This document shows positions 1-32,617 of a stretch of 34,714 nt of DNA, piece by piece. The translations under genes and the position numbers were made by a program. Within the stretch, counting starts at the first letter, position 1. Each line of letters opens with the position of its first letter. Location of the stretch: the NCBI GenBank assembly GCA_035389045.1, contig DAOORA010000050.1, positions 1-34,714 of the forward strand. The letters run 5' to 3'. The DNA comes from Bacteroidales bacterium (GTDB lineage Bacteria; Bacteroidota; Bacteroidia; Bacteroidales; CAIWKO01). The notes under the pieces are model-generated. The model made no database searches. It saw only the letters and a list, made by a program, of their open reading frames with translations, and was not told the origin of the DNA.

Positions 1-1171
1 ACGAGCACGCTGTTGGTTCCTGTGCCTGATGTGATGGACCCTCCCGGTGAGATGCTCCAGGAATATCCTGTCATGCCGGCTTCTGTCGAGTAAACAAAAC
101 CTGTGGAACCGTTGCATACAGAATCAGGTCCAGTGATCGCCGGAACCGGCAAGGTATTTACCATGACATTATATGTGGTCGCTGTAGCTGCCGTACAACC
201 GTTTCCATCCGTATAGTTTACGCTGATGGTCTGAGGTCCGGCATTATTCCAGGTTACGAGCACGCTATTGGTTCCTGTGCCTGATGTAATGGAACCTCCT
301 GCAGATATGATCCAGGAATATCCCATCATGCCGGCTTCCGTCGAATAGGCAACACCCGCTGATCCGTTGCAGACAGAGTCTGCTCCTGTGATTACCGGGA
401 CCGGCAAGGTATTTACCATGACATTATATGTGGTCGCTGTAGCTGCCGTACAACCGTTTCCATCTGTATAATTCACGCTGATGGTCTGAGGTCCGGCAGT
501 GTTCCAGGACACCTGTACACTGTTTGTTCCTGCTCCTGATGTAATGGAACCTCCCGCAGATATGATCCAGGAATATCCCGTCATGCCGGCTTCCGTCGAA
601 TAGGCAACACCCGTTGATCCGTTGCAGACAGAGTCTGCTCCTGTGATTACCGGGACCGGCAAGGTATTTACCATGACATTATATGTGGTCGCTGTAGCTG
701 CCGTACAACCGTTTCCATCTGTATAATTCACGCTGATGGTCTGAGGTCCGGCAGTGTTCCAGGACACCTGTACACTGTTTGTCCCTGCTCCCGATGTGAT
801 GGAACCGCCTGCAGATATACTCCAGGAATATCCCGTCATGCCGGCTTCCGTCGAGTAAACAACACCTGTGGAACCGTTGCATACAAAATCAGGACCAGTG
901 ATCGCCGGAACCGGCAAGGTATTTACCATAATATCATATGTGGTAGCAGTGTCTGCCGTACACCCGTTTACATCCGTATAGTTTACGCTGATGGTCTGAG
1001 GTCCTGCAATATTCCATGACACCTGTACACTGTTTGTTCCTGTTCCCGATGTGATGGAACCGCCTGCAGATATACTCCAGGAATATCCCGTCAGGCCGGC
1101 TTCCGTTGAGTAAACAACACCTGTGGAACCGTTGCATACAGAATCAGGCCCGGTGATCGCCGGAACCGGAC
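1..1171 (-). repeat. Coding tandem repeat, 255-bp (85-aa) unit, at least 4.6 copies, PKD/Ig-like
   Basis: AAGGTATTTACCAT recurs at 151, 406, 661 and 916, an exact 255-bp period. Unit: PVPAITGPDSVCNGSTGVVYSTEAGxTGYSWSISAGGSITSGTGTNSVQVSWNxAGPQTISVNYTDxNGCTA. Confidence 0.95.
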
Positions 1172-2578: not shown

Positions 2579-3613
2579 TTAGTTTTTAACAAGTTTATAT
2601 GTGTAGTTTCTTTTATTCATTCTGATAGAACAAACAATTTGAATATAATATATTCCTTTTTCTAACCCATGTAAATGCTTTATACTGAAATGTTCGTCCT
2701 GTTTTTGAACATTCATCTTTCTGGTAAGCCGGCCATCGGCAGCAAAGAGATTTATTTCTTCAACAAAGGCTGAGCTTGAAATTTCTATTGTAATACCATC
2801 AATAAAAGGGTTGGGATATATACCAGCATTCATTACTTCAAAATCATTTCCGGACAATACCGTTACATGTAACATGACAGCATCGGACACTATGGATACA
2901 CAGGTATTGCTTAGCATGCATCTGAAAGAGGCTCCGTCTAATGCCAGGGAGGGTTGAAGCACATGAAGAGTATCCTCTTTGCCACCCTGAAATATTTGGT
3001 TGTCCTGGATGTTTCCCCATCCGCTTCCCTGATTGATCTGCCATTGAATGCTATCATAATCTGAAGCCCCGACAGAAAAAAAACCATTTTGGGTTGTATT
3101 TAAGGTTAGTGGCAGCGGCTGCATATTGATCACAGGGTTTTCCGGAACCGCCAGACTTCCATTGGAATAATTAATATTGATCGGGTCACCTGCCGAATCA
3201 GCGATTTCGCAATTGGTCATAAAGTTTACCGGAATATTTCCTCCTGAAATCACTCTAAAATTCAGTACAGCAAAAAGTCCTGCATTAAAATTTACTCCTT
3301 CTCCGGCATTATCAATCCATGAAATCCCGATTTTTCCTATCCGTGGGCCATTCACGGGCACACGGATATCGTTGTACATGGTGCCCGAAGCAAGCGGGTT
3401 GATATTGCTTAGAAAAACGGAATCAACCATGCTGGTGTCGTATCCGATAAATAATGTAATTGCACCTATATTGGGTATAGCCGACATATTTACAGGAATG
3501 TTAGCAATAGTACCGATGCACGATTGCACATGGCCAATCTGCATGGTTTGCGTATGCACCCGCCCGCACATCAATATCAGTAAACAAAAAGCGACAGCCT
3601 TACAGAGTTTCAT
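2579..3613 (-). CDS. Cohesin-like + Ig-like + T9SS type A sorting domain protein (344 aa); candidate anchor or adaptor
   Basis: Signal peptide ...GRVHT|Q. Cohesin-like IPVNMSAIPNIGAITLFIGYDTS...ISW...LFAVLNF...CEIADSAGDPININYSNGSL. Ig PVINMQP...IQWQ...FRC. CTD IYPNPF...LFAADGR...GLEKGIYYIQI...KLVKN. Confidence 0.85.
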   Translation of the reverse strand: MKLCKAVAFCLLILMCGRVHTQTMQIGHVQSCIGTIANIPVNMSAIPNIGAITLFIGYDTSMVDSVFLSNINPLASGTMYNDIRVPVNGPRIGKIGISWIDNAGEGVNFNAGLFAVLNFRVISGGNIPVNFMTNCEIADSAGDPININYSNGSLAVPENPVINMQPLPLTLNTTQNGFFSVGASDYDSIQWQINQGSGWGNIQDNQIFQGGKEDTLHVLQPSLALDGASFRCMLSNTCVSIVSDAVMLHVTVLSGNDFEVMNAGIYPNPFIDGITIEISSSAFVEEINLFAADGRLTRKMNVQKQDEHFSIKHLHGLEKGIYYIQIVCSIRMNKRNYTYKLVKN

Positions 3614-3622
3614 AGTATCGCA

Positions 3623-6600
3623 TTAATTACCGGGGAAAATGATCATGGAGCGTGTTGCATTGAAATTCCTGGTAACGCCTTCAACAGTGATTTTGTAATA
3701 ATAAGCCCCGCTTTTTAATCCCGAACCGTCGAAACGGATGGTGTATTTCCCTGCTTTTTGCACCGTGGATACCAGGGTGCCGACTTCCTGTCCCAGCACA
3801 TCGTAAGCTTTAAGCAATACATTGCCTTCTTCGGGCAATACATATCCGATTTCCGTTTCTCCGCGGAAAGGATTCGGATGATTCTGGCTCAGTTCAAAAT
3901 CCAAATCCGGAGTAATACGGATATCGGGATAACTCAAGCGGACGCCATGCATAATATCTGCTGTTTTATCGGCAAATTCACTTGCAGCATCGAGGCTGAG
4001 CGCGATATTGTCTTTTTCGGAGGCGTTTTCACTGACTTTCAGATGCAGGACACATAACACATCATTGCTGTTAAATACCGCAGGAGACAGGCTATCCCAG
4101 GCAATGACGACTTTTCCTTTCCTGGCGCTGTATAATAATCCTGGCAGGGAGGACGAAATACCCTCAACATCTGCGAACTTCTCAGGATAATCAATGATCA
4201 GAGTAACAGCAGCGGGTTGTATCATATTTTCACATAGTATCGGAAGATCAATGTTTTGATCCCTGTTTGTAAATATCTCTCCTTTTTCGAAAAGCTCAAT
4301 CCCCGAATTTTTAAGCATTACCGGAGTAAACGAACCGTTCACATCTCCGGCACACAATGTTTTTATGTCATGAGTAATATTGGTGTCAGCCAAAACAATA
4401 GTATCTTTCAGGAATACAATGTCTTTGATCTGGAAATTGTCGATCTGGCCGACAACGCGTCTTCTGATCAGCAAGGCATCGGTGCTTGAAATGGTATTTG
4501 AGTGATTAACATCAGCCGCCGTGTCCTGTAGCCTGTTCAATACGGACAATCCTATGCTGGCCCTGCGCACCAATAAGGCATCTGTTGAATTGACGCCTCC
4601 CCACGGAAAAACGGCGGACGCATCAATTAAATATGTTTTCTGTGGATTCAGTCCCAGGTCGTATGCTCCGTCCACGCCGGCGGTTACGGAATCTAAATTT
4701 ACCCCTTCGGTGTTTCTCAGGTATACGGTGGCATTGCTTATCGGAGTGCCAGCCAGATTCTGATAGGTGACAGACCCTGTTATTGACTTGGGATATCCCA
4801 GTATAACTTCCGCCTCAGGCGTATTTTTCATGGGTTCGGTATTACCGACATTGTCTTTGGCAATAGAGAAAAAACCATACTCCGAATTTTCTATCCCTGA
4901 AAGATGAGCAGTGTCCCCGAAGATATATTCTCCGAATAAATTATATGGCCCGGCATCCCTGGAATAATAGAGCATATATTTTTGTATTCCGCAGCCGCCC
5001 GGATCATCCTGTCCGCTGAATATGATATCAAGCGAACTCGGAGAGGTTTGTATAAGGGTATCTATCGAACTGGCCGGCGCCTTAGCATCTATTTTATTAA
5101 ACCATTCATTCGTATTAATAGATTCATTAATATCAAAAACAATTTTGGCCTGAGCCAGCACGGAATCGCCTGTGATATCAGATGATCTGGGTTTAATGGT
5201 AAAAGTGACAAATCCCTCGCCAACATGGGTGTTGGTATCGTTGACCGGCAGAAATCCGGTTTGCGGATCATTAGGAGGAAGGCCTGTTGCAGGGTCAATA
5301 GACCGGAATACCCAGAACGCTTCATGGTTGACCACGTCGAGTCCGGCGACAACATCAACATAAACATTTAACGAATCTCTGACATCGAGTCTTGTGGTAT
5401 AATGTGCGGTATTGGCCGGTACAGAGAAATTAAAATCGCCAAAACCAAAATTTCCGATTTGCAATGAATTCCAGTTGATCTTGCTGCTGAGCGGGACATT
5501 AATTTTCACTTCCTGTGCCGGAGCCGTAGCAAAAACAGGATCGTTTTCAAACCAAACGGTATAGGACAGCTGGTCATTGACGGATACCCACTGTGGTTCT
5601 GCATATCCCGCTGGTCCGGCAATAATATTCGGATCCTGAGGGCAATCGATCGGAATGAACAACACAAACACACACTTGCTGGCATTGCAGCCATTGGAGT
5701 CTGTCACCGAACAGCAATACAATCCTGATCCTGAAACGGTGAGTGTACCTCCCGGCCAGCTGTAAGTATAGGGAGGTGTTCCCCCGGAAGCTGTTGCGGA
5801 TAATGTCGTTGAGGTTGGGTCACCATTACAGTAACGGATAACGGTATTTCCTCCACTGACCGATACGGTTAATTTCGCGGGCTCTCCGATGGTGACGTTT
5901 GTTCTTCCGTGGCAGCCGTTTGCGTCTGTCGCAGTGACCGTATAGGTTCCGGCTGCCAAACCACTGGCTGTAGCGCCCCCGCTGCCATTCGACCATGTAT
6001 AGGTGTATGGCTCGTCACCGCCAGAGGCAGAAGCTGTCGCAGTGCCATCACTGCCTCCGTGACAGGAGGGATTTTTCGATGATGTTATAGTTACCGGGAA
6101 TGCATTATAGGACATTTCCACCTCCACGGAGCCGGTTCCTTTGCAACCGGCAGAATCAGTGACCGTAACACTGTAAGTTCCCTGGGACAAATCTGTAATG
6201 GTTGATGTCGTCCCGCCATTTGACCACTCATACGTATAGGGGGTGCTGCCTCCGCTGGCTGTCACCGTTGCGGTTCCATCCGCCGTATTATCACAGCTTT
6301 CGGGGGTGGATGCCATAGTAGTACCTAATGTGGACATGGAAAGCTCAATAGTAACCGTTTCCGTTCCCTGGCAACCGTTGGCGTCCACAACGGTAACCGT
6401 ATAATCTCCTTCGGCCAGATTGCTGATGCCCGGCGTGTTTTCGCCGGTCGACCACGTATACGTATAAGGAGGTGTCCCGTTGCTGACATTTGTTACCTGC
6501 GCCGTTCCATCCGAAGCCCCGGTACAGGTTACATCGGTATGGTCAACCTCGATCTGGCCAAACCCGTTAAAAAATAAAAACTGGAGTATGAATAATATTC

Positions 6601-6655
6601 CGGCAAACTTGATTTTTGCAGAATTACCCTGTTGAGAATTTAAATATCTTTTCAT
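3623..6655 (-). CDS. T9SS substrate (1010 aa): SprB-like repeats, 'DPN' (DUF7619-like) domain, Fn3-like, carboxypeptidase-regulatory-like, dockerin, cohesin-like, T9SS CTD
   Basis: Signal peptide ...NGFG|Q. Three to four C..DGTA..GGTPPYTY.WS..L..G.YTVTV.DANGC repeats. QDPNIIAGPAGY...YTVWFENDP..ATAPAQ...SIDPATGLPP.DP..GFLP.N...GEGFV...IVFDINESI. Dockerin GGVNSTDALLVRR / AADVNHSNTISSTDALLIRR. CTD LSQNHPNPF...YDVLGQEV...LKSGAYYY. Confidence 0.9.
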   Translation of the reverse strand: MKRYLNSQQGNSAKIKFAGILFILQFLFFNGFGQIEVDHTDVTCTGASDGTAQVTNVSNGTPPYTYTWSTGENTPGISNLAEGDYTVTVVDANGCQGTETVTIELSMSTLGTTMASTPESCDNTADGTATVTASGGSTPYTYEWSNGGTTSTITDLSQGTYSVTVTDSAGCKGTGSVEVEMSYNAFPVTITSSKNPSCHGGSDGTATASASGGDEPYTYTWSNGSGGATASGLAAGTYTVTATDANGCHGRTNVTIGEPAKLTVSVSGGNTVIRYCNGDPTSTTLSATASGGTPPYTYSWPGGTLTVSGSGLYCCSVTDSNGCNASKCVFVLFIPIDCPQDPNIIAGPAGYAEPQWVSVNDQLSYTVWFENDPVFATAPAQEVKINVPLSSKINWNSLQIGNFGFGDFNFSVPANTAHYTTRLDVRDSLNVYVDVVAGLDVVNHEAFWVFRSIDPATGLPPNDPQTGFLPVNDTNTHVGEGFVTFTIKPRSSDITGDSVLAQAKIVFDINESINTNEWFNKIDAKAPASSIDTLIQTSPSSLDIIFSGQDDPGGCGIQKYMLYYSRDAGPYNLFGEYIFGDTAHLSGIENSEYGFFSIAKDNVGNTEPMKNTPEAEVILGYPKSITGSVTYQNLAGTPISNATVYLRNTEGVNLDSVTAGVDGAYDLGLNPQKTYLIDASAVFPWGGVNSTDALLVRRASIGLSVLNRLQDTAADVNHSNTISSTDALLIRRRVVGQIDNFQIKDIVFLKDTIVLADTNITHDIKTLCAGDVNGSFTPVMLKNSGIELFEKGEIFTNRDQNIDLPILCENMIQPAAVTLIIDYPEKFADVEGISSSLPGLLYSARKGKVVIAWDSLSPAVFNSNDVLCVLHLKVSENASEKDNIALSLDAASEFADKTADIMHGVRLSYPDIRITPDLDFELSQNHPNPFRGETEIGYVLPEEGNVLLKAYDVLGQEVGTLVSTVQKAGKYTIRFDGSGLKSGAYYYKITVEGVTRNFNATRSMIIFPGN
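4448..4603 (-). other. Dockerin-like domain in the 1010-aa protein
   Basis: Duplicated helix motif (STDALLVRR / STDALLIRR). The second copy has a Ca-binding loop, DVNHSNTISSTD. Confidence 0.8.
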
Positions 6656-6712: not shown

Positions 6713-7420
6713 TTAGTTTTTTCTTAATTTTTTCAGTGCCGGTTTTACCATGCGTTTGAACAGTTTTGCCGACTCCTCTTTACTCATGCAGCTTCTGTCC
6801 GGAATGACCGGTTTGCGTTGTTCCGTCATTTTAGACAGGGTGAAGGCCAATATTTCCTTTTTTTGCATGTCCTGTGCACTTTTTGCTTTTTGGATTATCG
6901 TCTTGATTATTTCTTTATCCCGCATCAGGATCAGTGATTTCGCACAAAACTCAGCCACAGAGAGATTGTTGCTCTCTAAGCTGTCGAGTAACACAGGAAC
7001 GGACAGATGCCACAGCCGCTGTATTTGCCCGTTGGCTTCTTCGTAGGTATTAGGGTTTTTTATTCCCGACATATAGATGTAGCGGGTGACTTTTTCATCA
7101 ATGATCTTCTTATCTGCTGCCGTCAGCATTACCTCGCCTCTTAATTCCCGATCCCCTAATTCTTTGGCAAGCTTCTTCAGTTCATTTTTATTTCTTGACG
7201 AATCCAATATACTGATTATTTCGGACACGGTTTTTTCCGATAAATATTTTGCATCATCATAAATTCCGGAACTGTTTTCGCCAGGACGGGTGTTATGGTT
7301 TTGAGCCCCGGAAAGGGTATCTGATACGAGATTCTCATTTTTATTCTGCCCGTATAACCCGCTGCATAACAAAATAAAAACAATAAAAAACCCTTTTAAA
7401 ATGTAATTACTTTTTTTCAT
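6713..7420 (-). CDS. Exported hypothetical protein (235 aa), alpha-helical/HEAT-like; orphan immunity-like candidate
   Basis: Signal peptide MKKSNYILKGFFIVFILLCSGLYG|Q. HEAT-like segment SVPVLLDSLESNNLSVAEFCAKSLILMRDKEII. No recognisable family. Confidence 0.75.
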   Translation of the reverse strand: MKKSNYILKGFFIVFILLCSGLYGQNKNENLVSDTLSGAQNHNTRPGENSSGIYDDAKYLSEKTVSEIISILDSSRNKNELKKLAKELGDRELRGEVMLTAADKKIIDEKVTRYIYMSGIKNPNTYEEANGQIQRLWHLSVPVLLDSLESNNLSVAEFCAKSLILMRDKEIIKTIIQKAKSAQDMQKKEILAFTLSKMTEQRKPVIPDRSCMSKEESAKLFKRMVKPALKKLRKN

Positions 7421-7475: not shown

Positions 7476-8546
7476 TTATTTCTCCAAATGTTTTTTAGTG
7501 ACCATAAAAGTTTCATTTAAAAAATCAACGCCTTGCTGTTCCCTGATGGCCCCCGCCAACGCTTCATTTTCATATAAGTTTTGCACATCCCTGACCAGTC
7601 TGTCTGTGAGTGTTCTGTCCATAGCGGTTTCCGGCAGGGAAAGTTGCCCGTTCATAATATAACAGGCATTATAGAGGAAAAAATATTGTTTTGCCAACAC
7701 GGTTGTTTGTTCCGATAATCCCAGTAAAATTGGGATATCCAGGTCTCCGTAAATTTCTTTCATAAATGCAATATTCCTGTTGAATATTATCTGATTGCTT
7801 TTTATAATAATATCCTGTAAATCTTTTTGCACGATTTTTTCCCAAACGGTTTGCCAGGCATTCCTTTGATCATCCTCAACATAAATGTCATGTTTAAGAA
7901 TGGCATCAGCGATTATTTCCTGTTCATTTTTTGTCAGGATAATATTGGGCATGTTTCCGATTTGTTTCAGACAAACAATAATACTATCGCTTTTATACTT
8001 TTCTGATAATGAAACGCTTATCATTTCCCGGATTCGGATTAAATAGCTGTTGTTTTGCATGCTGAAAATGTTCCTGAATAAACTCCGCACCAATGTACAG
8101 GCCGCATTTTCGTCCAGCTGGATAACAGTCCAAACAGCCCGGTGTGGCATGAATAAGGGACTGTTAAGCGGGCGCCGGACCGACATGTCAATCGCAGAAA
8201 AATTCTTAATAAAACTTTTCTCTTCCAGCATGGTTTGTGCAAAATTTCCAAGATAAGTGATTACTTCAGTTTTGTAAGTGGAATCCCAGCTGATATAGGC
8301 CATACGGGTCAAAAGAAACCGTGCATCAGAGGGGTTCTCCATTTTACTGAAGGTGTCCGTGCTTTGCAGATTCAGGAAGTTATCAAGCCTGACTTTCATT
8401 TCTTTCCAGTTCTCTGAGGTCAGGTTATCATATTCTTTGGGATAATAGTTATATGGCCGTTCTTTCTGTCCGTAAATATCGGTCACAGGTGCAATAACAA
8501 ATAATGTAACAATGAAAAATAAAGCTTTATAGATTTTTGTTTTCAT
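7476..8546 (-). CDS. Exported hypothetical protein (356 aa), probably alpha-helical; candidate cognate partner/immunity protein of the upstream HExxH protein
   Basis: Signal peptide ...APVTDIYG|Q. Starts 12 nt after the stop of the 529-aa gene. No visible similarity to the 338-aa or 235-aa proteins. Confidence 0.8.
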   Translation of the reverse strand: MKTKIYKALFFIVTLFVIAPVTDIYGQKERPYNYYPKEYDNLTSENWKEMKVRLDNFLNLQSTDTFSKMENPSDARFLLTRMAYISWDSTYKTEVITYLGNFAQTMLEEKSFIKNFSAIDMSVRRPLNSPLFMPHRAVWTVIQLDENAACTLVRSLFRNIFSMQNNSYLIRIREMISVSLSEKYKSDSIIVCLKQIGNMPNIILTKNEQEIIADAILKHDIYVEDDQRNAWQTVWEKIVQKDLQDIIIKSNQIIFNRNIAFMKEIYGDLDIPILLGLSEQTTVLAKQYFFLYNACYIMNGQLSLPETAMDRTLTDRLVRDVQNLYENEALAGAIREQQGVDFLNETFMVTKKHLEK

Positions 8547-24600: not shown

Positions 24601-27600
24601 TAGCACTTATATCGGCAGCCGCGCGGTTGACATTCCACATGCGGAATCCGTCAAGCTCCCCATTGAAATGGTAGCTTGCTGTACTATTGTAACAAACCCC
24701 AAGCCTCACATCCGAAAACACAGTGGGCCAGTATGAGTTATAACTGCCGTTATTGGTAACCACACCGTCATAATAGGTCCATATCTTATTCTGTGTTTTA
24801 TCCCAGGTAACGGCTACATGGTGCCAATAACCATAACCAACATTAGTTGTTATCACATAATTGGTATAATACGATCCCGCATCGTCACCATAAATCAGAT
24901 ACAAATAGGTTCCGCTCTGATAAATATTCAATCCTTTCCAGTTTCCGTTAAGGCCTGAAGAACAATAAACCCTTCTTGTCCCCGAATTTACATTGGTTTT
25001 CATCCAGAATTCGACACAGCCCTGGTTAGGCATTTGCCCGAAGTTACCAAAAAGCACCTCGCTGGTACTGCCATTGAACGACAAGGATTTGCCGGCTCCG
25101 GTGCTATAATAAGCATTCCAGTCGAGTGTATCATTGCCCGTATTTATGACCTGTAGCGTAGCAACAATCGTGTCAACACAACTATTGGTACTCGCCAGTA
25201 AACTGTCCGGGGCCAATATCAATTCCGGAGTTGGCAAAATAGTCCCGCTTACATACAGATGCCTGGTGTCGCTATTGTTCAGAATGGTAAGGGTGTCGCT
25301 GTGCAGGCCCTGTGTCAGCGAATAAAAACTGACTACAATATTACCAGAGTCGCGGGGCAAAACAAATGATGGATAGGAAACTGTAAATGCCGTGTCGGCA
25401 ATATTTACGGCTGTAATTTTTAATGAATCACATCCCGTATTATATACTTTAAAAGTATGAGTTGCGGTTTGTCCGGCCATTATGGACGGGAGGACGGTGG
25501 TGCTGTCGTGGAGCACGATCTGCGGTTGTCCCGTAAGAATAATCTGTGTAGGAATAACAGTAAACGGATGCAGTGGGTCATTGGTATAAATTCCGATCAC
25601 CGAATTGTGTATCCCGTTGTTGAAACCATGGGTCACAAATGTTATAGCGATATCGGTCGTATCACCGCCGGGCAGCAAACCGCTGACCATATCTGCCTCT
25701 ATTTGGGGAGATTGTACCGGGGCGGCAGAATTTACCCTGGTGGTATTTAGCAAAACACCTTTTTTGCCGGAGTTAAAACTATACACGGTGTCTCCCGACG
25801 GCTCATTGAAACCCCACAACCCTGTCAGGTCCGCAGGAGGCATGAATAACCCCTCGCGGTAATAATTACTGATTTCTGCAGCGGAACGGTTTACACTCCA
25901 CATGCGTAATTCGTCGATCTCCCCGTTGAAATGGTAGCTTGCAGTAGTATTATAACAAACGCCAAGTCTTACATCCGAAAACATTGTTGGCCAGTAAGAG
26001 TTATAACTGCCGTTATTGGTAACCACACCGTCATAATAAGTCCAGATCTTGTTCTGTGTTTTATCCCAGGTAACAGCTACATGGTGCCAATAGCCATAGC
26101 CGACATTAGATATTATTGTATACGTAGTATAATACGATCCGGCATCGTTACCAAAAATCATATACAGATACGTTCCGCTCTGATAGATGTTCAACCCCTT
26201 CCAGTTTCCGTTAAGACCTGAAGAACTGAATACCCTTTTTGTCCCCGAGTTTACATTGGTTTTCATCCAGAATTCGACGCTGCCCTTATCCGGCATCTGC
26301 CCGAAATTCCCGAAAAGAACCTCGCTTGTGCTGCCATTGAACGACAACGATTTTCCGGGTCCGTTACAATAATAAGCATCCCAGTCGAGTGTATCATTGC
26401 CCGTATTGATTATTTGCAGGGTGGAAACAACAGTATCTTCACAAATATCCGTGGCGGCCAGGATACTGTCGGGAATCAGCACCAGCTCAGGTGTCTGCAT
26501 AATAGTGCCGCTGACATAAAGATGTTTGTTTTCACTATTATTCAGTATGGTCAACGTATCTGAATGCAAGCCCTGGATCAGTGAAGTAAACTGAACGGTA
26601 ATAATACCGGAATCCCTTGGTAAAATAAAAGAAGGGAACCCGGGAATAAATGCCGGATCAGCAACAGTTACACCGGTAATTTTTAAAGAATCACAGCCGG
26701 TATTATAAATTTTAAAAGTATCCGACACCAATGCTCCGGCCATAATCGACGGGAATGTCCTGATACTGTCATTGAAGACTACCTGAGGCGATCCGTTAAG
26801 AATAAGCTGTGTTGGCACCATAACGAATTGATTAAGGGGGTCGTTGGTATAGATTCCGATCAGCGAATTGTGTGTTCCGTTATTGAAGCCATTTGTGATA
26901 AAGGAGACCTCTACAGTGGCTGAATCTCCGTCTGCAACTTGTCCGCTGAAAGGATTAACATCTATCTGAGGATCGTTTATCAAGGCGCCTGAACTAACCC
27001 GGGTCGTGTTATATAAAACCCCTGAAATGTCTGAATTGAAACTGTAAACGGTATCGCCCGAAGGTTCATTAAATTCCCATAACCCGGTCAAACCTGCCGG
27101 AGGAATAAATAAGCCTTTGCGATAATAACTGCTGATTTCTGCAGCAGTGCGGTTAACGGTCCACAGGCGTAATTCATCAATTTCGCCATTGTAATGATAT
27201 GTGGTGGATGACTGGTATCCGATACCCAGTCTTACATCCGAAAAATTGGTGACCCAGCGGGGATTATAACTACCGTTATTAGTCACAATTCCATCAAAAC
27301 AGGTCGATACCTGGTTCACCGTTTTATCCCATGTGACTGCAACGTGGTGCCATTTTGTATAATCAACATTGGTTGTAATCGTAAATGTATAGTATGAGGC
27401 ATTGTCATCACCCATGCGCAGATATAAATAAGTTCCGCTCTGATATATATTTACTCCTTTGTAGTTATTATTTATCCCTGAGGATGAAAATATATATTTC
27501 GTACCTGAGTTAACATTGGTCTTCATCCAGAATTCAACAGCACCTTTTACGGGCATGGGGCCAAGGTTCCCGAAATGAACCTCGCTGTTATTACCATTGA

Positions 27601-30600
27601 AATACAATGATTTTGATGCGCCTTCATCAGAATAGGCATACCAGTCCATCGTTTCATTCCCGGTATTGATCAACAGCAAGTTGGCAACGATGGTGTCATA
27701 ACAAATGCTGGTGCTTACCCCTATACTGTCAGGAACTAATACTAACTCAGGGGTTGGCAATATGACGCCATCCACATAAAGACGTTTTTCATCACTGTTG
27801 CTCATAACGATCAGCGTATCGCTGTGACTGCCCTGAACCAATGATGAAAAATTAACTGTAATTATCCCGGAATCTCTGGGTGGGATAGCAGCAGGATAAC
27901 CCGGAATAAAAGCCGAATCGTGAATAGTAACTCCGGTAATTTTCAGCGAATCACATCCTGTATTATACACTGTAAAATCTTTTGAAGCTATTACCCCGGC
28001 CATAATCGACGGGAATGTCCAGACACTGTCTGTTACCAGTATTTGCGGCTGGCCTGCAACAGTAAAACACAATGGAAGTAACGTATCCGGAGCCGCAGGG
28101 TCATTAGTTTGTATGGTCAGATTATAGCAATAAATGCCGTTATCCAATCCTGTAGAATTAAAAACAACATCTATAACCGTTGAGTCCTGGGGCGCAATAG
28201 TTCCCGAATCCTGCGTTAAGGCCAGCCATTCAGGATACACGTGAACCTTCGACATGGAATATTCAGCCATATTCGGAAGCATAGGTCCGGAGTTGTATCC
28301 ATTTGTATAGAGATAACCTAAAGTCATCGTTGTTGCAATCACAAGGCCCTTGCCTATGTTGTACTCAACCGTTGTCGGTTGATATGAATACCTGGTTTCG
28401 GTAATAATTTTTGCATCACCGGGAAGATTCATAAAATAGCCGGCATTGGCGTCATTGCCGTTAAGAATTACCGGCAACCCGTCCACAATAGGATGGGTGG
28501 TTAATAATGATGTATTTTCGTCTTCATTATTCCCATTGGGAACATTTACCCCTCCAGGGAGATTTATTGTAGCGCCGGAATAATTGGCAAGCTGGCAGTG
28601 AAAAATCCCGCCGTTATTCACAAAGGTTTCAAACTTTGTTTTGTTGCTTGAAACGCTATTATAATATGCAGAACCCTGATTTCCTGTCACTATAATAATA
28701 TTATATAAGGAAAAATCTGCTGCGGCTATCTGGCTGGAATTGATTTTTACCGGTGTTACACCATAATTGCTTTGTATAAAAGACTGCATATCAACATTCC
28801 ATTCCGAGCCTTCCTGTATCACCAATATGGAAGTATCGGTTCCCGAACTGCCTGTGGTGTCGATATAGTAAAACAAACTGGCTAAACCTGTATTATAAAT
28901 GGTCAACGGAATGGCAGCCGTATCATCGCAAGCGGCGGTGGCAAAAACAGTGTCGTGGCTCAGGACTAAATGGGGCGCGGGCAAAATATTCCCGCTGACA
29001 TAAAGATATTTGGTTTCACTGTTATTCAGCACAACGATTGTGTCTGTATGTAAACCCTGAACCATTGAATAAAAACTTATCGGTATAATGCCGGAGCTGT
29101 GTGGTAGAATAAATGCCGGAAATACCGGTGAAAAGGCAGAATCAGTATGGGTTACTGCCGTTATTTTCAGGGTGTCGCATCCGGTATTATAAATGGCGAA
29201 TGTGTCCGCCGCCATGGCGCCCGCCAATATCGGCGGAAAGTCTATCACGCTGTCTGTTACCATGATCTGCGGGTATCCAATGATGGTAAGGTTTAAAACT
29301 ACGGACACTGATGGTGTAAACGGATCATTTGACACTATCGCAATGTTTTGGAAATAACTCCCTGCATTCAAATTTCCAACAGCAAATGTTATATCCACCG
29401 AAGAGGAGTCACTGGCTGCAACGGTGTCTGCAATCGGGCTTAATATAGCCAGGCTTTTACCAATACCCTTTATTTTAACATCATCAATAACGGAGCCCTC
29501 ATAAAGCACAGATCCGTCGGAATGAAACCAAAAGCGGAACCTTACATAATCGCCATTATCGACATAGCTGCTGATGAAATGTTTTTTAAGGCTCCAGTCT
29601 TCATAACCGCTATAATCGTAAAGCGAAAACCATCCGCCCCCGTTTACACTCAATTGTGGCCTTAAATAATCAAAACCGCTCTCGAGGTTTCGTGTCAACA
29701 TGAATTGTATGGCAGCACTATCTTTATTGCTGATAAGGAAGGAGTCTTTTACCTGAATATATTTATCCCAGTAATTATCATAAGTGCCGGCAGGGCTTTC
29801 GGTGAGGCCGAACCCGCTATTATATCCCGGGCTGATAACACCCCAGTTAGCATCTCCGATCCAGTTGTCCAGGCCGTTTTCAAAATCTTCACACCATTCC
29901 TGGCTGATCAGGTAATTCAATGGCTGGTAACCTGTATTTTCTATCATCAGGGATACCGTTTGTGTTGCCGCGCTGTCGCAGGAGGAAATCGTTGCGAAAA
30001 CCGTATCCGGGCTGACATGTATCCGGGCAGGAGCGGGTAGTGCAACAAAGTTTACGGATAAGGTATCATTCGTAATATTCATGTCCCCGGCAAGACTTGT
30101 ATAAACTGTAAAACTATTACTTGAATCCGTAGCCGTTATTTGTGGCATATTGACCGATACCTCCTGTTGAGGCACCAACAGACCGTTCCAGGTATAGGAT
30201 ACCGGCGATTGCGAATTAAAGATATACGTCAAAGGAACCTGCGTAAGCGTATCGCTGCCGTTGTTTTTTATCTGCACGCTTACATCTGAAGGAATTAATT
30301 GATATACATTATTATCCGGTTTAATGATACTTGCCAATTTAACATCCTTTTGCAAAGCTTGTAAAACGGTCAGGGAATAATCCTCTGATTCCCCATAAGT
30401 ATATTGGTCGCAAGGATCATAAGGTGCGTCATAGTTAGAATACTCAGATCTAACGCGCATACGGTGGGCTCCCAGCGGGGCAGAACCTGGAATGGCAAAC
30501 AGGTCGGTGATTGTGAATAAACCGGCCTGATTATCGTTAGTAATCACCCGTTCCTCATCCTCAAAATAAGCATTATCGTTGAAATCAACCCAGACCGAAT

Positions 30601-32617
30601 ACGCCAAACCATAACCATAAGACGTAAACGACATTGAAATAGTACCATACGGAAAACCAGATACCGTTTGAGAATCGCTGTAATCCGTATACGATGCAGA
30701 AGAACAATCGGAAGTATTGTCAATATTGGTTTCGCCACCGCTGGTGGTCACATTGGTGATCCACATATACGTGCAGGGGTCGGAAGAAACTTCCGGAACA
30801 CAATAACAATCCGCAAGATACTTACTTACCACCAAAACGGGGTTGGAATACGATGAGCTTGAATCGTTAGTGCAGCTTATCATGCAACGGTAGTAAGCAG
30901 AAGCCGCCTGCGATGTTGTTAGTATTGCTTCATTTTCGCCGTCAAGGTCAGACCATGTGGTGCTGTCGGGAGATGATTGCCACTGGTAAGTGATCCCCGA
31001 TGCGGCAACATTGTTTTGCAAGGTCAGCACAAAAATATCTATCGGACAAACAGTGTCAGCCGTAGCCATGGTGTTGCCCGGGTTGATACCTGCCGTACAA
31101 GGTTCTGCAGCAAGGACAGTGATGGAATAGTCCTCCGTTTCCCCATAATCAAGATCATTACACGGGTCGGAAGGCGCACCATAATAAGAATAATCGCCCC
31201 GTACCCGCATCCTGTACGTCCCCGGATCCACATAACCGGGAATATTGAAATAATCAGTGACCGTGAATTCCCCCTGAGGGTTGTTATTAGAAAACACCTG
31301 TTCCGAACCCTCAAAAATCCCATTATTATTATAATCGATCCATACCGTATAAGCCAGGCCATAACCATAGGATGTAAAAGACATTGTGGTATAGCCAAAC
31401 TGATAATTGCTAACGGTGTCAGAACCGGTAAAATCGGCATATGATGATGAGTCACAGTCCGAAGTATTGCTGAAATCCGATATTCCTCCGCTGGTGGTTA
31501 CATTGGTGATCCACATATAATTACACGGATAATATGATGCGGGAGATATACAATAGCAATCAGCGAGTAAATTATTGCTAACAAATACCGGGCTGGAATA
31601 TGCGGTGTCCGAATCAAACGTACAGATGGTCATGCAGCGGTAATAAGCCGGAGTCGCCTGTGACGTGGCCAGTATCGCCGCAGTATCACCGGCCATATCG
31701 TTCCATAATGCACTGTCGGCAGACGATTGCCATTGGTATGTAATTCCCGCTGCAAATACATTGTTTTCCAAGGTCAGTGTAAAAACGTCTGTAGGACAAA
31801 CCGTATCGGAAGTAACAAGGGTATTTCCGGGATCGGGCGTGCCGGAACATGTCGGGAGTGTAATTACGGTAAACGCATAATCTTCAGTTTCTCCGTACAT
31901 CAGGGTGTCGCAAGGATCTGCGGGAGCGCCGTTGCTGTAATAGTCTCCCCTTATCCGCATTTTGTGAACGCCCGGCACAGCCGATGACGGAACCCAGAAG
32001 TAATCGGTAACCGTAAAGATCCCGCCAATATTATCGTTTATAATAACCCGTTCTGTCGAATCAAAAATATTGTCATCATTAAAGTCAATCCATACGGAAT
32101 AAGCCATGGCAGCGCCGGAAGAAGTAAAAGAAACAGCTACCTGGGTCTGCTGGAAATATCCTGCTGTATCAGAACTGCTGAAATCATCATACGACGAATC
32201 GGAGCAGCCCGAATTTTTATTCAGGTTTAAAATCCCGTCCCCAGTAGAAATATTTGAAATCCACATGGCACAGGAGGTGTCAAATGACCTTGCCGGAATA
32301 CATAAATCGACGTTCATCTCATTTCCTGATAACAACGGGCATATAAGATGTCTCTCATTCGTTGCGCTCAAACCATGCAAGGCTATGCAACTTTCATTAT
32401 AACTACAGCTGTTCAGGGCATATTTCACCACGAGGGCGCAATAGTTCCGGACATCACAGGCCGGGGCCGGAACTATTTCAGAACCTTCATGAGACATGAC
32501 ACAGGAGGCTACATTGCTCCTGATATATTCCGGCGCCCCCAGGCAATCTGCCTTTATTGAATTAAACAACAAAACACAAAAAGCGACCGAAACAAATAGT
32601 AAATTTTTTGCTTTCAT
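18635..32617 (-). CDS. Giant T9SS-secreted modular surface/adhesin-like protein (4660 aa): 3x GEVED, 8 Ig/choice-of-anchor-D scaffold units each with an inserted domain, Ig/PKD, dockerin, cohesin-like, T9SS CTD
   Basis: Signal peptide MKAKNLLFVSVAFCVLLFNSIKA|D. YGE(T/S)EDY three times. Four LamG-like domains (EFWMK...WHHVAVTWD...G.IDELR.W). Dockerin GGINATDGLVIRRH / AADVNNSQTVSSADALQVLRR. CTD EDNIPNPFS...VLNMQG...FAQGVYFYRL. Confidence 0.93.
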   Translation of the reverse strand: MKAKNLLFVSVAFCVLLFNSIKADCLGAPEYIRSNVASCVMSHEGSEIVPAPACDVRNYCALVVKYALNSCSYNESCIALHGLSATNERHLICPLLSGNEMNVDLCIPARSFDTSCAMWISNISTGDGILNLNKNSGCSDSSYDDFSSSDTAGYFQQTQVAVSFTSSGAAMAYSVWIDFNDDNIFDSTERVIINDNIGGIFTVTDYFWVPSSAVPGVHKMRIRGDYYSNGAPADPCDTLMYGETEDYAFTVITLPTCSGTPDPGNTLVTSDTVCPTDVFTLTLENNVFAAGITYQWQSSADSALWNDMAGDTAAILATSQATPAYYRCMTICTFDSDTAYSSPVFVSNNLLADCYCISPASYYPCNYMWITNVTTSGGISDFSNTSDCDSSSYADFTGSDTVSNYQFGYTTMSFTSYGYGLAYTVWIDYNNNGIFEGSEQVFSNNNPQGEFTVTDYFNIPGYVDPGTYRMRVRGDYSYYGAPSDPCNDLDYGETEDYSITVLAAEPCTAGINPGNTMATADTVCPIDIFVLTLQNNVAASGITYQWQSSPDSTTWSDLDGENEAILTTSQAASAYYRCMISCTNDSSSSYSNPVLVVSKYLADCYCVPEVSSDPCTYMWITNVTTSGGETNIDNTSDCSSASYTDYSDSQTVSGFPYGTISMSFTSYGYGLAYSVWVDFNDNAYFEDEERVITNDNQAGLFTITDLFAIPGSAPLGAHRMRVRSEYSNYDAPYDPCDQYTYGESEDYSLTVLQALQKDVKLASIIKPDNNVYQLIPSDVSVQIKNNGSDTLTQVPLTYIFNSQSPVSYTWNGLLVPQQEVSVNMPQITATDSSNSFTVYTSLAGDMNITNDTLSVNFVALPAPARIHVSPDTVFATISSCDSAATQTVSLMIENTGYQPLNYLISQEWCEDFENGLDNWIGDANWGVISPGYNSGFGLTESPAGTYDNYWDKYIQVKDSFLISNKDSAAIQFMLTRNLESGFDYLRPQLSVNGGGWFSLYDYSGYEDWSLKKHFISSYVDNGDYVRFRFWFHSDGSVLYEGSVIDDVKIKGIGKSLAILSPIADTVAASDSSSVDITFAVGNLNAGSYFQNIAIVSNDPFTPSVSVVLNLTIIGYPQIMVTDSVIDFPPILAGAMAADTFAIYNTGCDTLKITAVTHTDSAFSPVFPAFILPHSSGIIPISFYSMVQGLHTDTIVVLNNSETKYLYVSGNILPAPHLVLSHDTVFATAACDDTAAIPLTIYNTGLASLFYYIDTTGSSGTDTSILVIQEGSEWNVDMQSFIQSNYGVTPVKINSSQIAAADFSLYNIIIVTGNQGSAYYNSVSSNKTKFETFVNNGGIFHCQLANYSGATINLPGGVNVPNGNNEDENTSLLTTHPIVDGLPVILNGNDANAGYFMNLPGDAKIITETRYSYQPTTVEYNIGKGLVIATTMTLGYLYTNGYNSGPMLPNMAEYSMSKVHVYPEWLALTQDSGTIAPQDSTVIDVVFNSTGLDNGIYCYNLTIQTNDPAAPDTLLPLCFTVAGQPQILVTDSVWTFPSIMAGVIASKDFTVYNTGCDSLKITGVTIHDSAFIPGYPAAIPPRDSGIITVNFSSLVQGSHSDTLIVMSNSDEKRLYVDGVILPTPELVLVPDSIGVSTSICYDTIVANLLLINTGNETMDWYAYSDEGASKSLYFNGNNSEVHFGNLGPMPVKGAVEFWMKTNVNSGTKYIFSSSGINNNYKGVNIYQSGTYLYLRMGDDNASYYTFTITTNVDYTKWHHVAVTWDKTVNQVSTCFDGIVTNNGSYNPRWVTNFSDVRLGIGYQSSTTYHYNGEIDELRLWTVNRTAAEISSYYRKGLFIPPAGLTGLWEFNEPSGDTVYSFNSDISGVLYNTTRVSSGALINDPQIDVNPFSGQVADGDSATVEVSFITNGFNNGTHNSLIGIYTNDPLNQFVMVPTQLILNGSPQVVFNDSIRTFPSIMAGALVSDTFKIYNTGCDSLKITGVTVADPAFIPGFPSFILPRDSGIITVQFTSLIQGLHSDTLTILNNSENKHLYVSGTIMQTPELVLIPDSILAATDICEDTVVSTLQIINTGNDTLDWDAYYCNGPGKSLSFNGSTSEVLFGNFGQMPDKGSVEFWMKTNVNSGTKRVFSSSGLNGNWKGLNIYQSGTYLYMIFGNDAGSYYTTYTIISNVGYGYWHHVAVTWDKTQNKIWTYYDGVVTNNGSYNSYWPTMFSDVRLGVCYNTTASYHFNGEIDELRMWSVNRSAAEISNYYREGLFMPPADLTGLWGFNEPSGDTVYSFNSGKKGVLLNTTRVNSAAPVQSPQIEADMVSGLLPGGDTTDIAITFVTHGFNNGIHNSVIGIYTNDPLHPFTVIPTQIILTGQPQIVLHDSTTVLPSIMAGQTATHTFKVYNTGCDSLKITAVNIADTAFTVSYPSFVLPRDSGNIVVSFYSLTQGLHSDTLTILNNSDTRHLYVSGTILPTPELILAPDSLLASTNSCVDTIVATLQVINTGNDTLDWNAYYSTGAGKSLSFNGSTSEVLFGNFGQMPNQGCVEFWMKTNVNSGTRRVYCSSGLNGNWKGLNIYQSGTYLYLIYGDDAGSYYTNYVITTNVGYGYWHHVAVTWDKTQNKIWTYYDGVVTNNGSYNSYWPTVFSDVRLGVCYNSTASYHFNGELDGFRMWNVNRAAADISANAHDGIFMPPAGLTGCWEFNEASGDTVYSFNSDKKGVLLNTTRVNSAAPIQSPQIEADMVSGLLPGGDTATLEVTFYTGGFNNGIHNSVIAVNTNDPLHPIAFVPTQLILNGPPQIVLGDSIGTFHSIMAGSSAADTFMIYNTGCDSLIISALNHNNAAFTPVYPPYVLPRDSGQIIVNFSSLTQAVFYDTITIVSNSETVHLYVWGATTPTPAIDVEPDNIVVSTNNCVDPVVSTLQIINTGNDTLTCSYYFSESLADNFNNGVDNTQWSSVSNGVASNSCGTAAGNNALYFNGSGTREAITKPFNTMGGGVIAFYLKFGTGSSPCENADGGEDVVLEYSINNGATWVNIQTYYNDNYPVFTAVQAQIPVGAQSMTTLIRWRQLSHSGSGYDNWSIDEVSINGTGGVWASLSDTTGSVLPGDTGLLDITFGTGLLQSGTYYQNLVVESNDPLNPIIIVPMSFTINGTPQILLTDSISIFPDIMAGATVTDTFKIYNMGCDSLLIASVNNNDPAFTSVFPPYIMPGDSGIITVSFYSMVYGLHSDTLTILNNSEIRHLYVSGTILNTPGITIIPDSVVAGTYLCDDTITTSMQIINTGNDTLSCVYSLTTVFKDDFENGLSKWITNGNWGIINQGYTSVNGLTESPSGSYGNSWSYYIQMKDSIFVSNKDSARIQYMLKRSMESGYDYLYTQISVNGGSWVSLSPSFTGSESWSLKQFPISNYVNVGDYVKIRFLFTSDGSVVSDGVVIDDLEINGSICDWITLSDSAAWILPGDTSVLDITFNAGQINSGTYLQHMLIATNVPVSSFVTVPLIFTINGSPQIVIKDSVKAFSPIYAGVLVSDTFTIYNTGCDSLIINAVNHADPAFTSLYPSYIMPRDSGLVTVSFYSMVQGLHSDTLIIQNNSEIKRLYVSGTIIAAPMLAVTPDSLLINSGECYDTIISNLMVKNTGSNILNWNAYYTNGAGNALSFNGSNSEVILGDFGTMPQKGTIEFWMKSSVGSGQRVMFSSSGVNNNWKGINIYQYYNYIYLRIGADNGDSYTTYSIADNVDVGNWHHIAVTWDIVQNKVWTYLDGNVVTNGSYNPYWPSIINDARLGIGYSSSCHFYGQLDELRIWKETRSGVQIKNLYKEPYVSTSQYSLGLWEFNETSGDSVYCFDRYKNGYLSNVARVASGAMINKIGIDTDPDNGSVAAGDSANVQVTLITSGLFNGHHYGGIGISSNAPLHSEEIIPLHLILAGSPEIQLLSPDLYIDSIVAGASISDSVQFANHGCDTLIVTNITNNNPVFTVNHTSFTVPPGGSAMLSVTFSPVYAGSYTDTLYITSNGGNPQLFVHAYTVAPPVASVTISAPSFNPCLNTVVTCTAIPTNGGTNPLYQWYVNDSLMQQKYANNNGNIFSYTPVDYDTIICIMTSNLPYVVNNPDTSNILTITILPQVLPGAAGTISGITSTCRGQNNITYTVPVIANITSYIWTLPSGVTGTSSTNSITVSFTNIAVSGNITVKGHNNCGDGAESYLSVTVHPIPVVNAGSDTIINQGAPVTLNGNVTGGSLPYTLLWTPSSYLSDNDILNPVATPNSSITYTLSVTDANSCSATDNVYIGVRYISAGTVVYNNISQTPMQNEWVYLENASHVIIDSVLTSGSGYYYFDGLAWGTYTLYAKPTYLHGGINATDGLVIRRHVVNLAALSGINLNAADVNNSQTVSSADALQVLRRTIGMTSSFAAGDWTSERKSVYLTNNQPNGIIKVLCMGDVNGSYNIYNTKMAEGSPEMACVSGNADIIAGESFVLPIYVNKNIVPGAVTLHIQFPDNLMEINGVTLNGSDVEHNINNGVLSVGAYDENGLALNENVLLSLKCKIKSDAPNDVACFSLADQCEIADKEGNVISGLQLRVEQLNITEKFDGFKLEDNIPNPFSSSTMVRVYVPEEVSLDLSVLNMQGVEIKKISYEKLSAGWHEMEIDGKDFAQGVYFYRLRAAGMKNTFEETRRMMIMR
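19460..19612 (-). other. Dockerin-like domain in the 4660-aa protein
   Basis: GGINATDGLVIRRHVV...AADVNNSQTVSSADALQVLRRTIG, the same layout as in the 1010-aa protein. Confidence 0.8.
23395..23835 (-). other. Reelin-subrepeat-like domain inside the giant protein
   Basis: DNFNNG...QWSSVSNG....CG....NALYFNGSGTREAIT..FN...I.FYLKFG....CE.....EDVVLEYSINNGATW (Asp-box)...IP.GAQS..TLIRWRQ..HSG..YDNWSIDEVSI matches the motif order I recall for Reelin repeats. Confidence 0.7.
24455..27620 (-). repeat. Three tandem ~1260-bp LamG-containing modules; a fourth LamG lies at ~21080-21715
   Basis: The equivalent CCAGTC (DW codons) lies at 27641, 26381 and 25118, giving periods of 1260 and 1263 bp. Modules 2 and 3 are highly similar. 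Confidence 0.9.
30360..32310 (-). repeat. Three GEVED-domain units with an exact 750-bp period
   Basis: The Tyr codon of GE(T/S)EDY lies near 31877, 31127 and 30377. Each unit has VW(I/V)D(F/Y)N....F...E and G..(R/K)MR(V/I)R motifs. Confidence 0.88.

Follow-up and report, generated by a model that had tools for sequence, protein, structure and literature searches.

The DNA analysed here (the window) is the entire 34,714-base contig DAOORA010000050.1 (C50) of a Bacteroidales draft genome (4.46 Mb, 135 contigs, 96.3% complete), and its subject is a cluster of ten minus-strand open reading frames (ORFs) that occupies positions 3..32617. We judge the odds to be slightly on the side of this cluster being a copy of a conserved, non-cellulolytic Bacteroidota operon that encodes giant surface proteins, exported through Sec and displayed by the type IX secretion system (T9SS), which are probably joined to one another by cognate cohesin-dockerin pairs encoded in neighbouring genes. 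Such proteins would likely serve adhesion, combined with proteolysis outside the cell or at its surface, and not polysaccharide breakdown. Cohesins bind dockerins in a calcium-dependent manner, and type A C-terminal domains (CTDs) direct export by the T9SS and attachment to the cell surface. In two of the proteins, g4660 and g1010, a dockerin, a cohesin and such a CTD follow one another in a C-terminal cassette, and three further proteins, g1949, g344 and g803, carry a free cohesin at the N-terminus. The genes and their modules are listed here in the direction of transcription, with residues given as amino acids (aa).

18635..32617, minus: g4660, a giant secreted protein with GEVED x3, LamG x4, DUF1573/ASH-type immunoglobulin (Ig) domains, reelin-B, MAM, PKD_6 and a class A cassette (Pfam)
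19472..19612, minus: dockerin of g4660, aa 4336-4382 (Dockerin_1)
18896..19303, minus: cassette cohesin of g4660, aa 4439-4574 (sub-cut-off Pfam match, hidden Markov model (HMM) of the genome's own cohesins, phmmer)
18683..18883, minus: T9SS type A CTD of g4660, aa 4579-4645 (sub-cut-off PF18962 match, cassette alignment)
12786..18635, minus: g1949, with N-terminal cohesin, Ig domain, about 12 CARDB domains and a C-terminal region, without CTD (Pfam)
18054..18470, minus: N-terminal cohesin of g1949, aa 56-194 (Pfam on the segment, own HMM)
11207..12748, minus: hex513, slot gene with N-terminal Ig module, two beta-sandwiches and an HExxH domain (HEMQH, aa 419-423, at 11480-11494)
10197..11213, minus: p338, HEAT-like partner A, whose start overlaps the hex513 stop by 7 nt
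8559..10148, minus: hex529, paralogue of hex513 (HELHH, aa 434-438, at 8835-8849)
7476..8546, minus: p356, partner A of hex529
6713..7420, minus: p235, HEAT-like partner B
3623..6655, minus: g1010, with SprB x4, DUF7619 and a class A cassette (Pfam)
4454..4600, minus: dockerin of g1010, aa 686-734 (Dockerin_1; three helices in the model)
3905..4303, minus: cassette cohesin of g1010, aa 785-917 (fold match, without a Pfam match)
3677..3877, minus: T9SS type A CTD of g1010, aa 927-993 (PF18962, TIGR04183, PorU-like in the model)
2579..3613, minus: g344, with cohesin (aa 21-164, at 3122-3553), Ig-like domain and T9SS CTD (aa 265-344)
3..2411, minus: g803, with cohesin (aa 24-167, at 1911-2342) and PKD_6 repeats, cut at the contig end

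Both dockerins score above the Dockerin_1 (PF00404) cut-off of 22.9 bits, on the whole protein as well as on the cut-out segment (25.8 and 30.5 bits for g1010, 23.9 and 28.9 bits for g4660). A canonical dockerin calcium loop is of the DxNxDG...D type, and the second loop looks canonical in both ('DVNHSNTISSTD' and 'DVNNSQTVSSAD'). The Pfam Cohesin family (PF00963, cut-off 24.1 bits) was matched by the N-terminal modules of g344 (30.0/33.0 bits) and g1949 (29.8 bits, visible on the cut-out segment only), and the N-terminal module of g803, which at 18.7 bits stays under the cut-off, matched the g344 module in phmmer at 3.7e-17. The cassette cohesin of g4660 likewise lies under the cut-off (21.3 bits); it was also caught by the own-genome cohesin HMM and gave phmmer matches to the N-terminal cohesins of C57_1936 (3.8e-5) and g1949 (3.6e-4). 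The module before the CTD of g1010 had no Pfam match. CTDs were found on g1010 (PF18962, cut-off 27 bits, at 33.3 bits; TIGR04183 at 27.4 bits) and g344 (TIGR04183 at 34.6 bits; PF18962 at 30.3 bits), and that of g4660 was matched by PF18962 alone, at 23.4 bits and so under the cut-off, in a tail that aligns along the whole class A cassette. Neither TIGR04183 nor PF18962 matched g1949 or any of the five slot proteins.

The fold test covered residues 785-917 of g1010, one of the five window cohesins. An AlphaFold2 model of the g1010 tail, built from a 31-sequence alignment (pLDDT 91.2, pTM 0.74), shows in order a sandwich, three helices (cassette residues 81-125), a second sandwich and the CTD. 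When this second sandwich was compared with known structures, the top 23 rows were all cohesins (Z 11.8-13.8, 121-136 residues aligned, rmsd 2.4-4.7 Å and 2.4-3.1 Å in 22 of the 23), with the best match at Z 13.8 and rmsd 2.6 Å over 129-130 residues, and Foldseek gave TM scores of 0.73-0.74 to CaCohA2. As modelled, residues 785-917 have a cohesin fold, and the last domain of the same model resembles the PorU CTD (Z 10.5).

The ten genes are separated by gaps of -7 to 57 nt, with a single larger gap of 167 nt, and each N-terminus opens with basic residues and continues into a hydrophobic stretch (2.16-3.14 in the best Kyte-Doolittle window of 12 aa), the two properties by which Sec signal peptides were judged. 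A glutamine follows the hydrophobic stretch in nine of the ten (…AQ, …SQ, …GQ, …CQ, …TQ), which we take to fit the pyroglutamate 'Q-rule' for signal peptidase I substrates of Bacteroidota. A first-pass annotation, made from the letters of the window alone, had described ten co-oriented, close-packed genes with Sec-type N-termini, dockerins on the 4660- and 1010-aa proteins, N-terminal cohesins on the 344-aa, 1949-aa and edge proteins, two more cohesins ahead of T9SS CTDs and two HExxH proteins with partner genes; each of these elements was recovered here, the cohesin of g1010 by fold and that of g4660 by HMM and phmmer. The coupling to the T9SS that it proposed agrees both with the CTDs and with the machinery present in the genome (SprA_N, 561.9 bits on C6; GldM_1st, 107.6 bits on C82), where at least 150 CTD matches were counted, 150 of 317 candidates having been scored.

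In the genome as a whole, the dockerin belongs to a fixed C-terminal tail. There are 42 dockerin matches, one of which is cut by a contig end, and in the 41 that could be measured the distance from dockerin to ORF end is 305-329 aa in nine ORFs (class A, the window type) and 359-366 aa in 32 (class B). Alignments show the same order in both classes, namely a CarboxypepD_reg-like sandwich and the dockerin, then the conserved motif 'GD(V/Y)N.S', and last a 130-180-aa module and the CTD. The motif, in its longer form 'C.GD(V/Y)N.S', is found after each dockerin of either class, and likewise in foreign homologues (aa ~765-775 in g1010, aa ~4415-4425 in g4660); G161 and D162 of it are invariant and N164 and S166 nearly invariant in alignment A2, and its residues make it look like a third half calcium loop. 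An iterated own-genome HMM found nine cohesins in class A cassettes and a further 28 free ones, the latter spread over 14 proteins, for a total of at least 37 cohesins, with Pfam alone giving 24 matches on contigs other than that of the window.

The cassette is also widespread in public data. When the g1010 tail (401 aa) was compared by phmmer with a set of 1.84 billion representatives, 756 representative proteins reached E<=1e-30; at E<=1e-10 there were 33,442, a set that will include CTD-only matches. Among the 149 foreign matches listed, 148 end within 20 aa of the protein C-terminus and the remaining one 21 aa short of it, and 147 start at query residue 18 or before, in proteins of 277-6307 aa. 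Three of the ten clusters looked up have a representative whose name is informative, namely 'HYR domain-containing protein [Bacteroidota]', 'T9SS type A sorting domain-containing protein [Bacteroidales]' and 'hypothetical protein'. Among 40 relatives, G012 and G011 each have two class A tails of nearly full length and G004, G034 and G013 have one each, and many of the other matches comprise the CTD only.

Gene adjacency separates the two cassette classes. Each of the nine genes with a class A dockerin has, no more than 50 nt away, a co-oriented neighbour that encodes free cohesins. This holds for none of the 32 class B genes, three of which carry free cohesins within the same ORF; pairing in trans is therefore favoured. 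Three of the class A arrangements, in the window and on contigs C57 and C7, are paralogous triads that each consist of a giant cassette gene, a cohesin-CARDB gene and an SprB/DUF7619 cassette gene, and the others are paralogous dyads on C39 and C44 and one more dyad on C51. The paralogues of g4660, C57_4037 and C7_1325/1243, are 53-60% identical to it. The giant gene of the C7 triad (G000:C7:33974-41649) is split into two overlapping ORFs of 1243 and 1325 aa, which could reflect a frameshift, a pseudogene or an assembly error.

The same gene order is found in other genera. Orthologues of g1949, about 1940 aa long in other Bacteroidales metagenome-assembled genomes (MAGs), occur in 18 of 400 other genomes of the order and, counted by genus with the window's own genome included, in 12 of 236. 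Synteny was compared in eight loci from other genera of the order (G243, G095, G224, G075, G138, G123, G308 and G163), and the operon reads, in order, giant cassette gene, cohesin-CARDB gene, variable slot, SprB/DUF7619 cassette gene, small cohesin-CTD gene and cohesin-PKD-CTD gene. A giant g4660-like cassette gene lies directly upstream of the g1949-like gene in 8/8 loci and a g1010-like gene lies downstream in 8/8, with the cassette in seven of them (two cut by the end of the retrieved stretch) and the CTD alone in G308. A g344-like cohesin-CTD gene comes next in four of the eight, is absent from two and falls outside the stretch covered in the other two; in two loci (G095 and G224) a g803-like gene follows it. 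The window's own g803 is incomplete because the contig ends there, and the complete orthologue in G224 (1670 aa, with a cohesin and 12 PKD_6 domains) ends in a CTD of 44.4 bits; judged from this relative, g803 therefore most likely ends in a CTD as well. Positions 3-1400 of the window, within g803, hold near-identical tandem PKD_6 repeats with a GC content of up to 0.51, and these probably caused the contig break.

Some of these genes also occur fused. Protein P0188 (2424 aa) resembles g1949 in its signal peptide, N-terminal cohesin and CARDB array and then matches g1010 residues 341-1007 (DUF7619, dockerin, cohesin and CTD) at 41% identity, and P0213 similarly combines CARDB, DUF7619 and CTD. 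In a more distant relative of the operon, locus L013 (G024:C6:1-20000), the gene for a 2514-aa CARDB/beta-helix protein precedes genes for a product of 401 aa, a TSP3-repeat protein and one with DUF7619, and no cohesin or dockerin was matched there at E<=1e-5. The link between CARDB and DUF7619 may therefore be older than the link between cohesin and dockerin.

Between the g1949-like and g1010-like genes lies a slot whose content varies, with two extra genes in six of the eight loci and none in two. The first slot gene resembles hex513 and hex529 in its N-terminal ~110-185 residues only (26-52% identity), an Ig-like module that is a common repeat in the genome (36 matches), and its C-terminal domain and the second slot gene vary between loci. 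The slot holds a Cys-rich 400-aa protein and a TSP3-repeat protein in G243, G095, G224 and G075, and a 945-aa protein and an FN3-like protein in G138 and G123. With an empty slot, as in G163, C57 and C7, the third gene encodes FTP, M4 and M4_C domains (thermolysin-type) at its beginning, G308 being the exception. The window g1010 is without the M4 part of its paralogues and matches C7_1613 from residue 637 on at 72.5% identity; tblastn found no remnant of the M4 peptidase in the window, where the SprB region alone was matched. Along the DNA, the similarity to the paralogous loci breaks off precisely at the stop codon of g1949.

In the window the slot reads hex513-p338-hex529-p356-p235, with the two HExxH genes clearly paralogous (phmmer E 1.2e-160), a partner gene after each of them and a third partner after the second pair. 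The HExxH core is rare, with 11 proteins including the query among 5.8 billion clusters, and H419, E420, H423, D438, D451, D486 and E488 are invariant in ten aligned family members. Thirteen HExxH loci were found in GTDB species genomes (Planctomycetota, Verrucomicrobiota, Lentisphaerota, Hydrogenedentes, Delongbacteria, Saprospiraceae and Chitinophaga MAGs), and 11 of these have, next after the HExxH gene and often in overlap with its stop codon, a gene homologous to p338, p356 and/or p235: p338 homologues in four, p235 homologues downstream in nine, and a p356 homologue in the Chitinophaga MAG locus L020 (1.2e-42). A scan of 13 neighbours placed HEAT_2 above the cut-off in two and below it in eight, with relatives of both partner types among them and p235 relatives reaching 33.8 bits; the window's own three partner proteins had no family match in that scan, and the Atlas leads for p338 are HEAT-like. 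In the Chitinophaga MAG, an HExxH gene with a HEAT partner stands between g1949-like (5.6e-220) and g1010-like (2e-102) genes and thus in the same slot, and in Bacteroidota the HExxH proteins carry the slot's N-terminal Ig module. The HExxH and HEAT block, present in other phyla and in this same slot in Chitinophaga, is therefore a self-contained module that was recruited into the slot, at least twice or by descent. The HExxH domain was not found in the same-genus genomes searched, and among the matches listed there the likeness to hex513 outside the window covers the N-terminal module only. A DNA-run contig from an anaerobic digester joins position 10174 to 11719 through 25 other letters at a depth of 2.4; such a variant would lose p338 and the HExxH-bearing third of hex513, and the junction may reflect variation of the slot within the population or an error of assembly.

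By their motif, hex513 and hex529 are putative zinc hydrolases. None of the five slot proteins matched a family in Pfam or NCBIfam, and the hex513 model has a mean pLDDT of 62, with confident Ig-like sandwiches at about residues 100-340 and an HExxH domain below 50, so that fold searches with it are uninformative on that domain. For hex513, Foldseek returned nothing but generic Ig arrays, a profile search against PDB sequences gave no match at E<=1, and the Atlas gave no usable match for residues 320-513. Of the two functional roles that the first-pass annotation had given these genes, that of metallopeptidase payloads keeps its HExxH motifs, in a family that is unclassified and whose catalytic fold was not confirmed by the model and fold searches. 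What it had read as effector and immunity cassettes proved to be a three-gene module of one HExxH and two HEAT genes that is also present in phyla without a T9SS, and the place of this module in a polymorphic slot fits the idea of an interchangeable payload.

The cassette and free-cohesin genes extend well beyond the window. Five genes of the same genome (G000), all outside the window, encode scaffoldin-like proteins with several cohesins.

C96:3823-12408: scaffoldin-like gene, six cohesins
C39:24607-28821: scaffoldin-like gene, four cohesins
C44:8054-13714: scaffoldin-like gene, three cohesins
C51:30007-33582: scaffoldin-like gene, three cohesins
C26:29742-49043: scaffoldin-like gene, three cohesins

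Three of these proteins (those of C96, C39 and C44) themselves end in a class B dockerin-module-CTD cassette, which suggests a hierarchical network. The 32 class B proteins scattered over the genome, some of them peptidases (gingipain-like C25, M14 and M43), would be part of it. The catalytic domains that Pfam finds on the 40 dockerin ORFs outside the window are M4 (two), M14, M43, C25 with propeptide and Metallophos (two), and the other domains are Cleaved_Adhesin, beta-helix, Kelch, LamG, FG-GAP, propeller and Ig/PKD. The absence of glycoside hydrolases (GHs) that the first-pass annotation had reported for the locus extends to the entire system: in Pfam searches no GH family scored above its cut-off in any window ORF, and none of the genome's 42 dockerin ORFs matched a GH catalytic family at E<=1e-5. 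On this domain annotation, the description as non-cellulolytic is right for the whole genome system. Upstream of the cluster and divergent from it, the window contains one gene (33141-34118, plus strand) with a Fib_succ_major (FISUMP) domain and an fn3-like N-terminal part, which has 17 more matches in the same genome.

Independent samples carry the locus at >=95% likeness, and the public runs with locus DNA are labelled activated sludge and anaerobic digester. Run contigs cover 30/30 bins of the locus in X2 (DNA) and X3 (an RNA library) and 24/30 in X5 and X6. An RNA-library contig spanning 12264-12809 extends 24 letters into g1949, which is under the 31-letter minimum for bridging, so neither bridging of the junction nor co-transcription is claimed; the RNA library may hold DNA.

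Taken together, these results are consistent with the following mechanism. The CTD would take the cassettes of g4660 and g1010 through the T9SS and fix them to the outer membrane, where the free cohesins of g1949, g344 and g803 would bind the class A dockerins of g4660 and g1010, and the products would form one multi-subunit surface array of adhesin- and lectin-like arms. Slot products would be exchangeable accessory or payload subunits, a place filled in the window copy by the duplicated module of HExxH proteins (putative zinc hydrolases) and HEAT proteins; the paralogous copies have an empty slot and, instead, an M4 thermolysin domain on the g1010 counterpart. A multi-subunit surface complex is what the first-pass annotation had envisaged, and the domains, the T9SS and the synteny (the same order in 8/8 loci from other genera rather than a scatter of homologues) speak for it. 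The locus is not unique, being one of an operon family and part of a genome-wide system of 42 dockerins and at least 37 cohesins.

Several observations weigh against such an array. Binding of cohesin and dockerin in trans is inferred, and every cassette dockerin directly precedes its own cis cohesin, in a cassette model compact enough (pTM 0.74) to allow for a dockerin that is occupied intramolecularly. The first calcium loop is degenerate or shortened in both window dockerins ('PWGGVNSTD' and 'LHGGINATD'), and g1949 and the slot proteins are without a CTD, which leaves their route to the surface unexplained. The adjacency counts are inflated by the paralogy of the triads and of C39/C44 and amount to about four independent arrangements. 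The cohesin HMM was seeded from the window's own modules and missed the class B post-dockerin module, which is a probable cohesin only (hhalign 60.5%, E 8.4e-5, 118 columns), with sub-threshold Pfam cohesin matches at that position in two class B proteins. The operon is also patchy: full-length g1949 was found in none of 17 same-genus genomes searched, with short matches only in three. A complex prediction of the g1949 cohesin (36-200) with g1010 672-925 and two calcium ions (score 0.11, mark 0.32) counts neither for nor against binding. The main rival explanation builds on the cis arrangement and holds that the dockerin and cohesin of a cassette bind within one polypeptide to form a rigid, calcium-stabilised base for T9SS cargo, with no intermolecular assembly and with the free cohesins serving as binding or spacer beta-sandwiches. 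The compact four-domain model, the fixed C-terminal distance of 41 of the 42 dockerins, each followed by a cohesin or probable cohesin, and the preservation of the cassette as one unit in 756 representative clusters all agree with such a base. The adjacency of 9/9 against 0/32 would, however, be surprising if the free cohesins had no part in what the dockerins do, and the genome encodes scaffoldin-like proteins with three to six tandem free cohesins, for which reasons we regard a purely intramolecular role as unlikely, at perhaps one chance in several.

The slot is where contact-dependent antagonism would have to be sought, with the slot products as polymorphic effectors, the HEAT proteins as inhibitors or immunity proteins and the giant cohesin-dockerin proteins as the apparatus for delivery or adhesion. 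As in polymorphic toxin/immunity loci of the Rhs, CDI and MafB type, the first slot gene keeps its N-terminal Ig module while the C-terminal domain and the partner genes change, and the HExxH-partner pair is duplicated in the window; the HExxH gene keeps its partner in 11 of 13 loci from several phyla, the stop codon of the one often overlapping the start of the other, and the independent contig described above replaces 10175-11718 (a single contig, at low depth). Unlike those loci, this one has no toxin or immunity family match (Pfam, NCBIfam, PDB sequences and Atlas for toxins) and no known delivery domain, and its partners are exported, signal-peptide-bearing large HEAT solenoids rather than typical small immunity proteins. 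The N-terminal Ig module, moreover, is a common genome repeat and not a dedicated handle, the slot proteins lack a CTD, and the other slot alleles (the TSP3-repeat and FN3-like proteins) look structural, all of which makes antagonism a rather improbable account. A cellulosome-like complex for polysaccharide degradation is far less probable still and can be set aside as scarcely credible: cohesins, dockerins and multi-cohesin proteins are present in the genome, and weak matches of carbohydrate-binding module (CBM) type occur (CBM_2 at 28.4 bits on C41_24532 and a PL4 CBM-like match on C8), but the GH searches described above were negative in the window and on all 42 dockerin proteins, and the catalytic domains seen are those of peptidases and phosphoesterases.

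A neighbour-encoded array that is displayed by the T9SS thus remains the preferred reading, and the question that it poses is how its CTD-less partners leave the cell. One speculative answer, to which we give low odds, is that cohesin-dockerin pairing supplies the T9SS sorting signal in trans, such that g1949, and possibly the slot products too, would attach to a neighbour's cassette while still in the periplasm and pass through the T9SS translocon as a pre-formed complex. If this were true, the cassette would be a general adaptor by which one CTD exports and anchors several polypeptides, and the P0188 fusion, with its cassette in cis, would represent the unsplit form. If the modules bind as they do in cellulosomes, the system would be a general Bacteroidota way of organising T9SS cargo on the surface, the cargo in question being adhesins, gingipain-like and thermolysin-like proteases and scaffoldin-like proteins. 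With two dockerins, five cohesins and an exchangeable payload slot, the operon is a compact and testable model for this.

A literature search covering sources outside subscription journals found no publication on the dockerin-cohesin-CTD cassette, the operon or the slot. Cohesin-dockerin pairing is textbook knowledge for the cellulosomes of Gram-positive bacteria. With the clostridial cellulosome (CipA/OlpB type) the system shares a type I-like cohesin fold, dockerin sequence and, elsewhere in the genome, multi-cohesin proteins, and we take the Ser-Thr ... Arg-Arg residues in both dockerin helices to be as in clostridial type I dockerins. It differs in having no glycoside hydrolases, in its T9SS CTD anchor as opposed to SLH domains or sortase, and in that each dockerin comes with its own anchor and a cis cohesin. 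Closer in some respects are the non-cellulosomal systems, in which the modules are likewise found on proteins other than cellulases and both modules can occur in one polypeptide, and which also provide cohesin fold matches. Examples are the cohesin-dockerin pairs of Clostridium perfringens toxin/GH84 proteins, whose entries 2w1n and 2jh2 are among the fold matches of the g1010 cohesin, and the Archaeoglobus fulgidus cohesin 2xdh. What sets the present system apart from these is a fixed dockerin-cohesin-T9SS-CTD tail on dozens of Gram-negative surface proteins and an operon with a slot, with binding being predicted here. The survey of Peer et al. 2009 is said to be an example of work on such non-cellulosomal systems.

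Cohesin- and dockerin-bearing adhesins have also been discussed for consortia of anaerobic methanotrophic archaea and sulfate-reducing bacteria (PMC10553843). In Chlorobium chlorochromatii, the giant neighbours Cag_2038, with a C-terminal dockerin, and Cag_2037, with an N-terminal cohesin, have been modelled as binding (preprint 10.64898/2026.03.19.712371), which provides a precedent for the pairing proposed here. As in the window, a giant Ig-rich dockerin protein is encoded upstream of a giant cohesin protein and surface tethering is proposed; according to the accessible part of that report, the Chlorobium cohesin protein differs in being a type I secretion (T1SS/RTX) substrate, and the pair is without a CTD cassette, a CARDB array or a slot. 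The nearest parallel concerns 'Ca. Stygibacter' (Cloacimonadota), for which a CTD-anchored cellulosome-like complex was inferred (Williams et al. 2021, PMC8542988). That organism has GH18, GH57, CBM2/CBM3 and one large scaffoldin, and the cassette, triad and slot are not described in the available portion of the paper. Like the genome studied here, it is known from a MAG of the FCB (Fibrobacteres-Chlorobi-Bacteroidetes) group, it carries dockerins on peptidases (S8, C25) and other enzymes and encodes a multi-cohesin scaffoldin-like protein with a T9SS-type CTD, and in both organisms a surface complex of this kind is proposed from the genome.

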